Positions 13,681 through 19,599 of a DNA stretch of 49,962 bases are shown here, piece after piece (position 1 is the stretch's first letter; every line of letters begins with the position of its first letter). The notes beneath the pieces are model-generated. The model did not search any database, was not told the origin of the DNA, and saw only the letters and a list, made by a program, of their open reading frames with translations. The DNA is from Patescibacteria group bacterium (lineage in GTDB: Bacteria > Patescibacteriota > JACPGU01). A program made the position numbers and the translations under genes. The stretch covers positions 378,283 through 428,244 of the forward strand of contig JBAYUK010000001.1 of the NCBI GenBank assembly GCA_041675145.1, written 5' to 3'.

Positions 13681-14109
13681 ATGATTAGTATTATCGTAAA
13701 CTACTGGGCGGTACTTATCGCTGTTGTTGTTACCCAGGCACTCGGAGCTTTTTGGTATTCCAATGTTGCATTTGGAAAAGTATGGAATAAAGACCTGGCA
13801 TTATCTGAAGCACAAGCCAAGCTCGCAAAAAAGAAGATGGGTCCAAGCGCTGCTATCTTTGCAGCTGTCTCACTTCTTTCAGCCTATACCCTTTCGCATA
13901 TTATCCAGTTTTCTATGTATACTCTTGGTGGGTCAGCGATGGTCTCTGGCCTTACCTCTGCACTCTGGATCTGGCTTGGGTTTGTAATGCCAGCCCAAAT
14001 CGGACTTGTGCTCTTTCAGGGTAAGTCGTGGCGCTTTTTTGCCATTAACACCAGCTACTCTCTGCTTGCCTACCTTATCATGGGCGCAATTATTGCGTAT
14101 TGGATCTAG
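13681..14109 (+). CDS. DUF1761-family membrane protein
   Basis: VNYWAVLIA...LGAFWYS...FGKVW, four TMs, FAINTSY. GAGGAGG SD upstream. Confidence 0.85.
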   Translation: MISIIVNYWAVLIAVVVTQALGAFWYSNVAFGKVWNKDLALSEAQAKLAKKKMGPSAAIFAAVSLLSAYTLSHIIQFSMYTLGGSAMVSGLTSALWIWLGFVMPAQIGLVLFQGKSWRFFAINTSYSLLAYLIMGAIIAYWI

Positions 14110-14146: not shown

Positions 14147-14192
14147 ATACATACATAAAAACCCGGGATACCCCGGGTTTTTATGTATGTAT
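14147..14192. terminator. Bidirectional terminator/long palindrome
   Basis: ATACATACATAAAAACCCGGG-atac-CCCGGGTTTTTATGTATGTAT, 21-bp perfect arms between convergent genes. Confidence 0.85.
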
Positions 14193-14196
14193 AAAT

Positions 14197-14544
14197 CTAT
14201 ATCGTTTTTTGGAGCGTCTCCAGCGCCAACAACGCACACTTGAGTCGGTTTGGGCTAAGCGGTATCTTTACGAGATCTAAAATGTCATGAGTAGTAAGCA
14301 TTGCAATCTGCGCTGTGGTCATTTTGTCATGAGCTATTTTCTCAAGCAGCATACTTGCAGAAGCCTGGGAGATAGCGCAACCCGTTCCAGTAAATGAGTA
14401 GTGCCCATTCTTTTCGTACATGCAGATTGTATCCCCGCAGGTAACATTATCTTCACAATGCGTTATCTTCGCACCAGCAAGCTCCCCCTTATGTCGGGGA
14501 TTTTTAAAGTGATCAAGAATTTGTTGCTGGTAGATAAATTCCAT
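14197..14544 (-). CDS. sufU: SufU/IscU-type Fe-S scaffold/sulfur-transfer protein
   Basis: ILDHFKNPRHKG, NVTCGD, GCAISQASAS, RLKCALL motifs. Confidence 0.9.
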   Translation of the reverse strand: MEFIYQQQILDHFKNPRHKGELAGAKITHCEDNVTCGDTICMYEKNGHYSFTGTGCAISQASASMLLEKIAHDKMTTAQIAMLTTHDILDLVKIPLSPNRLKCALLALETLQKTI

Positions 14545-14548
14545 ATTA

Positions 14549-15094
14549 CTAGCTTGCTATATATTCCTCTAAATGCGTACCAACTAACAGTGCATCAGCA
14601 CCAGTCTTCACATCTTCCTTTGTCCTAATATTACTTGCTTGGCACAACCAACCCGGCCATATACTGCGCGCTTGTTCAAAGGTCTCTGTTTTATAGCCTC
14701 CGGTAGTAAGGTCTCGACTATTCCATACCACTTTTGTATTCGCTGGATAGCTCTGCATCTCAGCTACAGTGTACGGCTCAATAAGACACTTCTCTAGGTA
14801 GATTCCAGGAATTCTTCCCACTACCAATACCATATCTGCTCCCGCATCAAGTGCTTCTTGAACATCTTTATCAAGTGCATGGATACCCTTAGCGAGAATA
14901 GGCTTGGAAGTTCGTGATCGTGCCGTACGAATAAGGTCGAGTGAACCACCCCATCTCGAATCTGTATGAATGGAAAGGATATCTCCGTGTTGATTCGCAA
15001 GCTCAAATAGCTCGTCCCATGTCTTACTACTCTTCCAGCCAAAGGGAGAAAGTGTTTTTACTTCCGCAATAAAAAGCGGCCTGTTCTGTATCAT
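14549..15094 (-). CDS. Truncated, divergent indole-3-glycerol-phosphate synthase (TrpC)-like TIM-barrel protein
   Basis: FIAEVKTLSP, SIHTD..WGGS, PILAK, GADMVL, WNSRDL, ASNI, GADALLVG motifs. Only 181 aa; its ATG overlaps the sufS stop. Confidence 0.75.
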   Translation of the reverse strand: MIQNRPLFIAEVKTLSPFGWKSSKTWDELFELANQHGDILSIHTDSRWGGSLDLIRTARSRTSKPILAKGIHALDKDVQEALDAGADMVLVVGRIPGIYLEKCLIEPYTVAEMQSYPANTKVVWNSRDLTTGGYKTETFEQARSIWPGWLCQASNIRTKEDVKTGADALLVGTHLEEYIAS

Positions 15095-16311
15095 ACCCCA
15101 AATACTTCCTCTGCTTTACTAATGCCGGCTACCAGCGCCATCACATCCTCGCGGGTGTTATAAAGCGCGAAACTTGCCCGCACCGTAGCAGGGACATTCA
15201 GTTTATCATGCAAGATCATTGCACAGTGGTGTCCTGCTCGCACACACACTCCCATGTGGTCAGAAAGAATCTGAGCAAGGTCATGTGCATGAACTTCGCT
15301 ATGTACAAATGAGACAATAGTACCTTCAGGGGCAATCATAACTTTGATATGGCTATTCTTACTGAGTTGCTCTATAGCATACGCTGCGAGCTCTTTCTCA
15401 TGTATTAAAACGTCTGCACGGTTTAACGTACTTAAAAAGTCTATGGCAGCTGCCAGGCCTATAACTTCTGCAATAGGTGGTGTTCCAGCTTCAAACTTAT
15501 ATGGCGTATCGTTTGGAGTAAATCCAGTTAAGGTAACGGTCTTAATCATATCTCCGCCACCAAGAAATGGTGGCATAGCGTCTAAGATCCGTTTCTTTCC
15601 CCATAACACCCCAATACCAGTTGGACCGTACATTTTATGCCCTGAAAAAACAAAGAAGTCACACTTAAGATCCAACACGTTAACTGGCGTATGGACAACA
15701 AGCTGAGAGCCATCAATAAGGAGCTTAGCAGCTGGTGCGTGTTTCTTGCGCAAGCTATCGATTTTGCGAATATCGTTTACGGTTCCCAAAACATTTGACA
15801 TACCAGTAATAGCGATCATTTTTGTACGGTCGTTAAGTCTACGAGAAAAGGCGTCGTAATCCAGCTGGCCGTCATCATTAACCGGAACAAAGCGGATTTT
15901 AGCCCCACTCATGCCGGCTACCATCTGCCAGGGTACAATATTAGCGTGGTGCTCCATTTCTGACAAAACAATCTCATCTCCTGATTCCAGGTTCTCCATC
16001 CCCCATGAATAGGCCACAAGGTTAATGGCCTCAGTGGCATTTTTCGTAAAGACAATTTCCGATGCAGATGATGCGCCAATAAATGTTGCTACCTTCTCTC
16101 GAGCCGCTTCATATGCACTCGTGGCTTCTTCCGCAAGTACATGAACACCTCGATGAATATTAGCGTTGGTGTTGGTATAAAAATCGTCCATGGCTTTTAA
16201 AACCACTTCTGGCTTCTGGCTCGTTGCGGCGGTATCCAAATACACCAACGAACGACCGTTGATCTGACGAGAAAGGATCGGGAACTGAGATTTGATATCT
16301 GTACTATGCAT
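15091..16311 (-). CDS. sufS: SufS cysteine desulfurase
   Basis: YLDTAATSQKP, EHHANIVPW, FSGHKMYGPTGIG, FEAGTP, VRAGHHCA motifs. Confidence 0.96.
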   Translation of the reverse strand: MHSTDIKSQFPILSRQINGRSLVYLDTAATSQKPEVVLKAMDDFYTNTNANIHRGVHVLAEEATSAYEAAREKVATFIGASSASEIVFTKNATEAINLVAYSWGMENLESGDEIVLSEMEHHANIVPWQMVAGMSGAKIRFVPVNDDGQLDYDAFSRRLNDRTKMIAITGMSNVLGTVNDIRKIDSLRKKHAPAAKLLIDGSQLVVHTPVNVLDLKCDFFVFSGHKMYGPTGIGVLWGKKRILDAMPPFLGGGDMIKTVTLTGFTPNDTPYKFEAGTPPIAEVIGLAAAIDFLSTLNRADVLIHEKELAAYAIEQLSKNSHIKVMIAPEGTIVSFVHSEVHAHDLAQILSDHMGVCVRAGHHCAMILHDKLNVPATVRASFALYNTREDVMALVAGISKAEEVFGV

Positions 16312-16315
16312 ATAA

Positions 16316-16621
16316 TTAGGTAATGTCGACCATGACTGAGTCGCCTTGTATGGTAACTGGATAAATTTTTATAGGAAGTGTTGCGGGTAAGCCTCTCACA
16401 GCACCGGTGGTAATGTCAAACTTCGAGCCGTGTTCAGGACACTCTACCCAGGTTCCTTCCATATACCCCTGGGATAACGGAATCTTCTGGTGACTACATT
16501 CGTCTTGGGTAGCGTAAAAACGCCCTTCAACATTGTAGATGGCGAGGCGAATACCCTGAACTGTAAACTCCTCTATCTCACCTATTTTCACCTGATTTGT
16601 TTTGCATGCTTCGTATAACAT
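16316..16621 (-). CDS. Rieske [2Fe-2S] ferredoxin
   Basis: CSHQ...CPEHGSKF Rieske motif. Confidence 0.92.
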   Translation of the reverse strand: MLYEACKTNQVKIGEIEEFTVQGIRLAIYNVEGRFYATQDECSHQKIPLSQGYMEGTWVECPEHGSKFDITTGAVRGLPATLPIKIYPVTIQGDSVMVDIT

Positions 16622-16629
16622 AAAAAGAG

Positions 16630-17214
16630 TTAGGTTGTTTTTCCAAGAAAGGTATTCAGCAGTGTTGCTCGCGCTAGCTCCGGGCTCATGCCACGCGCCT
16701 GCATATAGTATACCTGATTATAATCCACATGGCCGACAGAAACGCCGTGACTAGCCTGCACAATGTTTGATTCATGGATTTCTAGGGCAGGAATCGCCAT
16801 GACCTGCGCTGTTCCGGTGTCTTTTAAAAAGTCTGCTCGGTACAGGGTATCAGTACCCGTTGCTCCTGGCTGAATCTGGATTACTCCACGACAGTCAATG
16901 AGCGCTGTACCTGACCCAACACCTCTCATCTCAGCTAAACAGTCGGTGTCTTTCCCGCTGTGGGCAATTATAAGGCGCATCTTGACCACCGAGCTACCCG
17001 TTGCTTCTAGTACACCAGTAAACTCACCGGAACTGCGATCTCCTTGAAAAATTAGGGAGATTTCTTGGTCTACTGACACATCTGGAAGAACACTATATGA
17101 GATAGCAGCACTGGTGTCTGCTTCAAACGTAACTACGATCTTTGGCACATCAAGCGGGAGAACAATTGTTTGCCCCTGCTCTCTCACCGTAATGTTCATT
17201 GCTTGTGTATTCAT
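16630..17214 (-). CDS. sufD: Short SufD-like Fe-S assembly protein
   Basis: AIPALEIHESNIVQASHGVSVG...YYMQARG, typical of the SufD C-terminus; only 194 aa. Confidence 0.8.
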   Translation of the reverse strand: MNTQAMNITVREQGQTIVLPLDVPKIVVTFEADTSAAISYSVLPDVSVDQEISLIFQGDRSSGEFTGVLEATGSSVVKMRLIIAHSGKDTDCLAEMRGVGSGTALIDCRGVIQIQPGATGTDTLYRADFLKDTGTAQVMAIPALEIHESNIVQASHGVSVGHVDYNQVYYMQARGMSPELARATLLNTFLGKTT

Positions 17215-18668
17215 TATCCTAAACTCCCTTCCATTTCAAGCTCCACCAGACGGTTCAGCTCCAAGGCGTACTCCATAGGGAGTTCACGAATAATAGGTTC
17301 AAAGAATCCGTTTACGATCATACCGCGAGCAAGCGCTACATCTACCCCACGAGTCTGGAGATAGAGTAATTGTTCATCAGTAATCTTAGAAACCTGTGCC
17401 TCATGTTCAATAACCGTATCCATCTCTCGGATATCCATAGTGGGATAGGTATTGGAAACCGAACCAGCCGAGTCATCTCCAAGCAACAATGCATCACACT
17501 GCACGCTGGTGCGACACCCGGTCATACCTGGTTCAACGCGCACCAGTCCCCGGTAGGTAGTAACACCGCCGTCTTTTGCAATCGACTTGGCGGTAATAAC
17601 TGAAGTCGTATTGGGCGCTGAGTGAATCATCTTCGCTCCCGTATCCTGCACCCGGCCACTGCCTGCAAACGCGAGGGAGAGTACCTCTCCGTGCGCACCT
17701 TCACCCATCAAGTAGACAGATGGGTACTTCATCGTGAGTTTACTGCCTAAATTACCGTCGATCCATTCCATGCGTGCGTTTTCATAGGCCACTGCTCGTT
17801 TGGTAACGAGGTTATATACATTGCGACTCCAATTTTGAATCGTGGTGTAGCGTACCTTCGCTCCCTTTTTCACCACAATCTCAACGACTGCCGAGTGGAG
17901 CGAGTCGGTGGTGTGAATCGGTGCTGAACACCCCTCAATGTAGTGCACATCCGATCCCTCATCGGCAATAATTAATGTCCTCTCAAACTGCCCGGCATTT
18001 TTTGTGTTAATTCTAAAGTAGGTTTGCAGTGGCATTTCTACCTTAAGACCCTTTGGTATGTAAATAAAAGATCCACCTGACCACACCGCGGTGTTAAGCG
18101 CCGCAAACTTGTTGTCCCTAGCTGAGATTACCGTACCAAAATACTCTTTAAAAATTTCAGGGTATTGCTTGAGTCCCTCATCAGGAGATAAGAAAATAAC
18201 TCCTTGTTTGGACAATTCTTCTTGTAACGAGTGGTACATCACTTCTGACTCATACTGGGCTCCCACTCCAGCTAAAAACTTGCGTTCTGCTTCAGGGATA
18301 CCAAGTTTATCAAAGGTGTTTTTCACATAGTCGGGCACTTCATCCCAGGTAGCCTTGAGGTTACCTGCTTTTTCAGGCCGTATATAATAGTGGATGTTAT
18401 CAAAGTCGATACCAGATAAATCTCCACCCCAGGCAGGCATCGGCTTTTCTAGAAAAATCTCATACGCCTTCAAGCGCTTTTCTAGCATCCATTCTGGCTC
18501 ACCTTTGATGCGTGAGATCGCACGAATCACCTCAGGGTTGAGACCCTTTTCAGAAAGATACTCATAGGCTGCTGCCTCATCTTCAAAACCGTATTGCTCT
18601 TGGTACCGGTCATCGTATGAAGAAAGGGCATCGAGTGCCGCATTGTCTTTGGGAGTAGTCTTATCCAT
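17214..18668 (-). CDS. sufB: Fe-S cluster assembly protein SufB
   Basis: LGIPEAER, GAQYESEV, GQFERTLII, YIEGCSAP, EHEAQVSKI motifs. Confidence 0.97.
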   Translation of the reverse strand: MDKTTPKDNAALDALSSYDDRYQEQYGFEDEAAAYEYLSEKGLNPEVIRAISRIKGEPEWMLEKRLKAYEIFLEKPMPAWGGDLSGIDFDNIHYYIRPEKAGNLKATWDEVPDYVKNTFDKLGIPEAERKFLAGVGAQYESEVMYHSLQEELSKQGVIFLSPDEGLKQYPEIFKEYFGTVISARDNKFAALNTAVWSGGSFIYIPKGLKVEMPLQTYFRINTKNAGQFERTLIIADEGSDVHYIEGCSAPIHTTDSLHSAVVEIVVKKGAKVRYTTIQNWSRNVYNLVTKRAVAYENARMEWIDGNLGSKLTMKYPSVYLMGEGAHGEVLSLAFAGSGRVQDTGAKMIHSAPNTTSVITAKSIAKDGGVTTYRGLVRVEPGMTGCRTSVQCDALLLGDDSAGSVSNTYPTMDIREMDTVIEHEAQVSKITDEQLLYLQTRGVDVALARGMIVNGFFEPIIRELPMEYALELNRLVELEMEGSLG

Positions 18669-19434
18669 TGATACCCTTGTACCCTTCTGTTTCTAAAATC
18701 TGGGCTATTTCTGGACCACCACTAGCAACAATTGAACCATCCATCATGACATGCACCATGGTAGGTGTAATATAGTCGAGTACTTTTTGGTTATGGGTAA
18801 TAATAATCAGTCCCATCGTATCTTTGCGCTGTTCAAATACACGATTCACCGCTGCAAAGACCATCTTGAGCGCATCAACATCCAGCCCTGCATCCAGCTC
18901 GTCAATAATAGCGAGCTTAGGTTCAAGAACTGCTAACTGCAAGACCTCAGTCTTTTTGCGTTCACCACCCGAGAGTTCGTCGTTTACTCCTCTTTGGATC
19001 ATCTCTTCAGGGACGTCTAACCATGTCATGGGTGGAAGCATTCTGGTTCGGTAGAAATCATTTACTGAAAGCTTCTTTTGCTCATCTAAAATATCTCCCT
19101 CTCCGGCTAGCTGTGCGGTATACGCGGTATACAGGAAGTTAAAGAGTGGGAGACCAGGAATAGCCACTGGGTGCTGAAAAGATAAAAACAACCCCGCACG
19201 AGCCCGCTGGTCAGGGGTCGTGTTACCTGCTTCTTTACCGAACAACTCAATACTCCCATCAGTTACCTGATACTGAGTATTACCCACTATAGTTTGGGCA
19301 AGAGTCGACTTACCAGAGCCGTTGGGTCCCATAATCACATGCACTTCTCCTGGAGACACGGCAAAATCTATCCCTTTGAGGATTTCTTGGGTACCGACTG
19401 CTACGCTTAGATTTTCAAGATTAAGTAAAGACAT
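18661..19434 (-). CDS. sufC: Fe-S cluster assembly ATPase SufC
   Basis: GPNGSGKST, FLSFQHP, LSGGERKK, IIDELDAGLDVDAL motifs. Confidence 0.95.
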   Translation of the reverse strand: MSLLNLENLSVAVGTQEILKGIDFAVSPGEVHVIMGPNGSGKSTLAQTIVGNTQYQVTDGSIELFGKEAGNTTPDQRARAGLFLSFQHPVAIPGLPLFNFLYTAYTAQLAGEGDILDEQKKLSVNDFYRTRMLPPMTWLDVPEEMIQRGVNDELSGGERKKTEVLQLAVLEPKLAIIDELDAGLDVDALKMVFAAVNRVFEQRKDTMGLIIITHNQKVLDYITPTMVHVMMDGSIVASGGPEIAQILETEGYKGING

Positions 19435-19570: not shown

Positions 19571-19599
19571 ATTATATAAGTATTTTTCTATCCTGTAAA
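19571..19599 (-). promoter_or_regulatory. Sigma70 promoter of the suf operon
   Basis: Minus strand TTTACA(19599-19594)-17 nt-TATAAT(19576-19571). Confidence 0.7.

Follow-up and report, generated by a model that had tools for sequence, protein, structure and literature searches.

The gene between sufS and sufU

The window, by which we mean the whole stretch of 49,962 nucleotides that was analysed, contains a suf operon of seven genes on the minus strand in the order sufC, sufB, sufD-like, Rieske, sufS, an ORF of 181 amino acids and sufU. The features of this locus are listed in the direction of transcription, with their coordinates in the window.

19571–19599, minus strand: promoter-like site 5′ of sufC, TTTACA-17-TATAAT, 11/12 matches (consensus scan only)
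18661–19434, minus strand: sufC ABC ATPase (ABC_tran 73.7 bits; 42% identity to a suf-linked relative)
17214–18668, minus strand: sufB (SUFBD_core 265 bits, together with SufBD_N)
16630–17214, minus strand: short SufD-like protein, 194 aa (SUFBD_core 94 bits)
16316–16621, minus strand: Rieske [2Fe-2S] protein within the suf operon (PF00355 72 bits)
15091–16311, minus strand: sufS cysteine desulfurase (TIGR01979 547.6 bits, above cut-off)
15091–15094, minus strand: ATGA overlap, in which the sufS stop and the start of the 181-aa ORF share bases (direct sequence reading)
14549–15094, minus strand: 181-aa minimal IGPS (TrpC)-like (β/α)8 barrel gene, the probable passenger (ORF; Pfam IGPS 37.5 bits; AlphaFold2 model)
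14197–14544, minus strand: sufU sulfur-transfer protein (NifU_N 64.6 bits; TIGR01994 79 bits, below that model's cut-off)
14147–14192, no strand assigned: perfect 21-nt inverted repeat with a 4-nt loop, just 3′ of sufU (repeat search)

The ATG of sufU lies 4 nt past the TAG of the 181-aa ORF, and both this junction and the ATGA overlap with sufS are precise, without insertion scar; a repeat search of the window also found no insertion scars or flanking repeats around this copy. The original prediction had described the ORF with the same overlap and gap, and its description agreed with the coordinates and the sequence throughout, with the strand (minus) as an item that had not been stated. The GC content of the ORF was 44.7% and that of the suf genes 44–48%, so that composition is uninformative about a foreign origin. 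The 21-nt inverted repeat, which is located between the convergent sufU and a gene for a 142-aa membrane protein (13681–14109), is probably a bidirectional terminator that closes the suf operon. The SufD-like protein of the window is very short, its 194 residues comprising the core domain only, and a Rieske gene is present 5′ of sufS also in a relative of the same family (L104).

The genomic context of the gene was surveyed in 80 homolog loci with up to 8 kb on each side. When all seven suf proteins of the window were used as tblastn queries, no suf gene (sufS, sufU, sufB, sufC or sufD) was found within 8 kb in any of the 80 loci. Upstream and downstream, the immediate neighbours fell into 79 and 64 Pfam families, respectively; no family occurred in more than 3 loci, and the neighbours that recurred in small groups of loci were housekeeping genes (LemA, M48 peptidase, LigA, FtsZ, GatA and DnaX), reflecting local synteny. 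Beyond this synteny, no conserved partner was found by all-against-all clustering of 1189 neighbour ORFs and by searching 66 upstream, 67 downstream and 63 viral neighbours against Pfam. Most copies were located among housekeeping genes without mobile-element genes nearby.

In five relatives (L104 of the same family, L105, L110, L111 and L116), sufS was followed directly by sufU with no barrel gene between them, in line with the normal adjacency of these genes that had been assumed at the outset, indicating that the barrel gene is a lineage-specific insertion into the operon. Two readings of the gene had been proposed in the original prediction, namely a barrel repurposed for Fe–S or sulfur handling and a passenger insertion. 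Since the homologs occur in random contexts, which the prediction itself had named as the finding that would speak against its Fe–S reading, this reading fails, and the check on consistent suf linkage of the homologs gave the same answer (0/80). The second reading is borne out by the relatives' operons and by the lack of any conserved neighbour, and we consider it very probable that the gene is a passenger in the suf operon that is unrelated to suf. An accessory protein of SufS/SufU, which would supply or handle a substrate for sulfur mobilisation, could explain the position of the gene with its ATGA overlap and 4-nt gap, seen in one genome only, and also the two cysteines C103 and C151 that are invariant in the close family; however, both cysteines are conserved at less than 60% across the wider family (106 representatives), and such a suf-linked role was rejected on the 0/80 count and the relatives' operons, leaving it very improbable. 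The result thus removes a tempting, unsupported tie between a TrpC-like barrel and Fe–S assembly at this locus.

A minimal barrel of the indole-3-glycerol-phosphate synthase type

The 181-aa ORF scored 37.5 bits on the Pfam IGPS model (PF00218, cut-off 27) over profile positions 46–239 of 254, and on all 12 NCBIfam TrpC equivalog models it scored far below the cut-offs (best, 41.7 bits versus a cut-off of 258). Its best homologs were matched at E = 1e-77, and its length is shared by more than 1000 matching proteins; by these sequence comparisons the resemblance to the homologs is far above chance. The profile of the family also matched PDB 1i4n (E = 3.6e-21) and the Sulfolobus solfataricus IGPS (E = 5e-18).

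Structure prediction, which had been proposed as one of the checks, gave a confident barrel (AlphaFold2 with 29 homologs, pLDDT 95.5, pTM 0.91). The model consists of eight strands and helices α1, α2, α3, α5, α6 and α8, whereas the α0/α00 lid is missing and α4 and α7 are reduced to loops. By Foldseek and by an all-against-representatives structural search, IGPS structures ranked first (TrpC, EC 4.1.1.48; PDB 1i4n, 1igs, 1vc4 and 6y88; Z 18–21, rmsd 2.1–2.4 Å over 180 residues), confirming that IGPS is the closest fold. One of the top Foldseek matches, all of which were IGPS, was PDB 2c3z (TM 0.79 by query), an N-terminally truncated S. solfataricus IGPS that likewise forms a barrel without the first helix; this protein is an engineered deletion of the canonical enzyme that keeps α4, α7 and E210, whereas the present family is natural and further reduced. 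The next tier consisted of HisF, HisA, 3-hexulose-6-phosphate synthase, KGPDC, PRAI and RPE, which, together with NanE, belong to the same fold class, have 200–230 residues and carry the β7/β8 phosphate site, but are clearly more distant than IGPS (Z 13–15). An H-x-D motif on β2 raised the idea that the protein replaces RPE; this idea was rejected because RPE is separately present in 4/4 carrier genomes.

The catalytic motifs were then compared at the level of individual residues. HMMER aligned AEVK with E51/K53, ILAK with K110, NSRD with N180/R182 and QASNI with A209-E210-S211-G212-I213 of S. solfataricus IGPS, in accordance with the original reading that both catalytic lysines and the NxRD motif are kept and that QASNI stands in place of ESGI. 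The position of E210 is taken by Ala. The N-terminal α0/α00 extension, which covers the active site in IGPS, is absent, as had also been noticed; the protein starts only 6 residues before β1, the alignment begins at around residue 45 of IGPS and the Pfam match at profile position 46. By the family profile, E11, K13, S16/P17, K69 and E106 correspond to E51, K53, S56/P57, K110 and E159, and N125, R127, S154 and G172 correspond to N180, R182, S211 and G233, respectively, while H43, W48, G70, H72 and A153 replace L83, F89, D111, I113 and E210. Among 106 representatives of 50%-identity clusters, the retained residues were almost invariant (E11 99%, K13 98%, K69 99%, E106 97%, N125 98%, R127 98%, S154 97%, G172 100%), and the substituted ones were also fixed to a large extent (Ala at 153 98%, H43 93%, H72 86%), as was Q152 (90%). 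Compared with IGPS, therefore, the family keeps E51, K53, K110, E159, N180, R182, S211 and the β8 Gly of the phosphate site, but is about 70 residues shorter, has Ala at E210, the third residue of the Glu-Lys-Glu triad, and Gly at D111, and has acquired the conserved H43, H72 and Q152. In Mycobacterium tuberculosis IGPS, the E219A mutant, equivalent to a change of E210, had no detectable activity, and Gln at that position was tenfold more active (PMC10591298). The residue conservation together with the E210-to-Ala change indicates that, as far as can be read from the alignments, the family retains the residues of IGPS for acid/base chemistry and for binding the carboxylate and the phosphate, in a pocket that is remodelled and more open.

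A decaying trpC remnant without function would also be about 70 residues shorter than IGPS and would be found where the pathway is gone. This explanation is contradicted by the same length in more than 1000 homologs and by the 97–100% conservation of the catalytic positions across the 106 diverged representatives; in addition, the reading frame is uninterrupted and the predicted fold is of very high confidence, so that we regard decay as extremely improbable. The family thus provides a natural (β/α)8 barrel of 180 residues that has lost two helices and the lid while the IGPS catalytic set is retained, which should make it valuable in research on minimal TIM barrels and in enzyme design, a field in which IGPS is a popular starting scaffold.

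Distribution of the family and signs of transfer

The family comprises more than 1000 proteins of 175–215 aa that are 60–71% identical, and about 150 clusters at 50% identity scored below 1e-30. Close homologs were found in about 3–4 of 400 sampled Patescibacteria species (~1%) and in none of the 5 genomes of the window genome's own family. A search of one genome per prokaryotic species confirmed 125 stretches, which belonged to Paceibacteria-type and Saccharibacteria-labelled MAGs and to Woese-, Pace- and Nanoarchaeota. Bacterial and archaeal copies were 60–66% identical (60–70% across all groups), whereas the SufS of the same-family relative was only 48% identical to that of the window. About a dozen viral contigs in IMG/VR (17–354 kb, 31–65% GC) also carried the gene, and Uroviricota was the commonest labelled phylum in the corresponding ESM Atlas cluster; no match to the family was found in 50,697 GenBank phage records. 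The tree was star-like, with 7 of 8 archaeal copies forming one cluster within the bacterial radiation, the eighth lying elsewhere, and viral copies branching at two or more points. The tree and the distribution are most simply explained by repeated horizontal transfer, and as the tree is unrooted and poorly resolved, we claim no direction of transfer. We found no paper on a family of IGPS-like proteins of about 180 aa in the literature; it is a widespread uncharacterised subfamily that is labelled 'indole-3-glycerol phosphate synthase' or 'hypothetical' in databases.

Signs of mobility were seen at a subset of the loci. In 11 of the 80 loci, a same-strand tRNA gene ended 4–59 nt upstream of the start codon, compared to 0.8 loci expected from the local tRNA density (tRNA-Ser five times, tRNA-Leu twice, and tRNA-His, -Val, -Arg and -Asp); some of these loci are syntenic, so that the independent events are fewer than 11, but they concern no fewer than 8 different tRNA genes. 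On one short contig, a 210-nt direct repeat brackets the gene (L036:283-492 and L036:1102-1311, spacing 819 nt) and holds the 3′ end of a tRNA-Ser, a partial tRNA copy, two hairpins and a promoter-like TTACGA..TATAAT. Judged by its layout, this repeat resembles the trace left when a circle of about 820 nt integrates by a single crossover. No recombinase recurred beside the gene in the Pfam neighbour scans of the homolog loci.

ARAGORN called tRNA-Ser genes with the anticodon ACT at L030:10877-10964, L036:198-287 and L042:2252-2339, and two of these three adjoin the IGPS-like gene. An A at tRNA position 34, as in this anticodon, is unusual for bacteria.

The sporadic distribution combined with tight conservation would fit also an accessory role, for example in host or phage conflict, rather than a metabolic one. 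We therefore considered a conflict gene of phage origin, acting in counter-defence or host manipulation by degrading or converting a signal or metabolite that contains ribose phosphate and picked up repeatedly by ultra-small episymbionts. The copies on phage contigs of IMG/VR, the rank of Uroviricota in the ESM Atlas cluster and the transfer-driven distribution with landing sites next to tRNA genes are consistent with it, as are two viral neighbourhoods: on a 112.7-kb IMG/VR contig the IGPS-like gene follows at 2 nt a homolog of the anti-Pycsar protein Apyc1 (L098:7129-7971, 132.6 bits), and in L097 it overlaps an RNA ligase gene. However, the 63 viral neighbours showed no conservation, neither the PADLOC nor the PHROGs family library gave a match to the family, the GenBank phage records contained none, and the dozen or so viral contigs stand against 125 matches in cellular species genomes, where most copies are surrounded by housekeeping genes and have no mobile-element genes in the vicinity. 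On balance, this explanation appears improbable.

The tryptophan pathway and candidate functions

The original prediction had noted that no other trp gene is present in the window and had proposed to look for the barrel in genomes without tryptophan genes. Searches for TrpA, TrpB, TrpD, TrpE and TrpF found none of them in the window genome (844 kb, 98% complete) nor in the three other carriers, and the same searches matched 13–14 of 14 control genomes. The four carriers (G000, G067, G113 and G317, 90–100% complete) thus hold the TrpC-like barrel outside tryptophan synthesis, as had been supposed, and in this the family differs from IGPS. The database label 'indole-3-glycerol phosphate synthase' would wrongly credit these tiny symbionts with a step of the tryptophan pathway. 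A link to the TrpD-like/BtpA module was rejected, as both genes of the pair were missing from the carriers.

Fusions and partners of the barrel were also searched. Only 4 longer proteins were found among more than 1000, and each was a singleton: one fusion to a shikimate-kinase-like domain, one probable read-through into TsaD and two proteins with unrecognised N-termini. In the first of these (P0271, 343 aa, on a single 3-kb contig), an N-terminal shikimate-kinase-like domain that matches PDB 1via over its full length (E = 1.5e-14) precedes the minimal barrel; the window genome itself has no SKI-like kinase. These searches gave no partner gene and no informative conserved fusion for the family.

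Several of these observations bear on whether the protein is a genuine minimal IGPS, converting CdRP into indole-3-glycerol phosphate on host-derived intermediates or in a tryptophan-related salvage route. The catalytic residues other than E210 (E51, K53, K110, E159 and N180) and the carboxylate-binding R182 are kept, the truncated S. solfataricus IGPS ranks with the best structural matches, the barrel is fused to a shikimate-kinase-like domain in one protein, and the well conserved Q152 lies beside A153, which recalls the tenfold activity of the Glu-to-Gln variant of M. tuberculosis IGPS (PMC10591298). Moreover, the genus of the two carriers G067 and G113 includes two other species (G042 and G091) that lack the minimal form and have canonical TrpC and TrpF, so that the two forms may alternate within this genus. 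On the other hand, the four carriers have neither TrpA/TrpB to use the product nor TrpD, TrpE and TrpF to make the substrate, the TrpD-like/BtpA module is missing as well, the equivalog scores are far below the cut-offs, and HMMER places Ala, not Gln, at E210, a change that inactivates the M. tuberculosis enzyme. A genuine IGPS is accordingly an unlikely explanation.

Taken as a whole, the explanation that we consider probable is that the product of the 181-aa ORF is functional and descends, in shortened form, from indole-3-glycerol-phosphate synthase. Its family of single-domain barrels of about 180 aa is distinct and strongly conserved and moves horizontally. In this lineage alone, the gene would have entered the suf operon as a passenger without a promoter, coming to lie between sufS and sufU, where it would be transcribed with the suf operon and translationally coupled to sufS with no specific role in Fe–S assembly. 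Most likely the protein is an active enzyme on a phosphosugar-amine, with the chemistry read only from the retained residues. It would bind a phosphorylated, ribulose-5-phosphate-like chain at the usual β7/β8 phosphate site, and the set of K69 (K110), E11 (E51), E106 (E159) and K13 (K53) would perform acid–base chemistry in a pocket presumably opened and remodelled by three changes, namely the missing N-terminal lid, the Ala fixed in place of E210 and the new conserved histidines H43 and H72. The substrate would be a CdRP-like N-substituted aminodeoxyribulose phosphate or a related phosphosugar rather than a tryptophan intermediate; we regard action on a CdRP-like phosphoribulosyl-amine as a reasonable but somewhat doubtful candidate. 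In view of the inactivity of E219A in M. tuberculosis IGPS (PMC10591298), the retained residues may also serve a reaction other than the one assumed here.

The nearest conceptual precedent is Plasmodium falciparum AMR1, which, with other apicomplexan 'IGPS-like' proteins, is an IGPS homolog kept by organisms that lack tryptophan biosynthesis, in which its role has nothing to do with tryptophan (PMC6380595). AMR1 differs in having lost key catalytic residues and in carrying large extensions (PMC6380595), whereas the present family is minimal and keeps nearly all catalytic residues.

In a more speculative and, as a whole, rather unlikely form of our explanation, the family would be a new enzyme, the smallest natural TIM barrel derived from IGPS, which the loss of the lid, the E210-to-Ala change and two active-site histidines have retooled for a non-tryptophan phosphoribulosyl-amine or a related ribose-phosphate compound, such as an Amadori adduct of ribose-5-phosphate or a signal derived from a nucleotide. 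On this view, the gene would move between Patescibacteria, DPANN archaea and their phages as a cassette of one gene with no promoter, and its insertion sites would lie either just past tRNA genes or within operons. Its transfer between bacterial, archaeal and phage genomes suggests that the function is portable and benefits cells that depend on a host.

In the two species with canonical TrpC (G042 and G091), no TrpA was found, and the 280-aa TrpC (216 bits) is encoded between genes for a ROK kinase and a 2H-phosphoesterase, while the separate TrpF gene adjoins uvrC (loci L012/L122, G042:C1:505000-514000, and L120, G042:C1:703500-709500).
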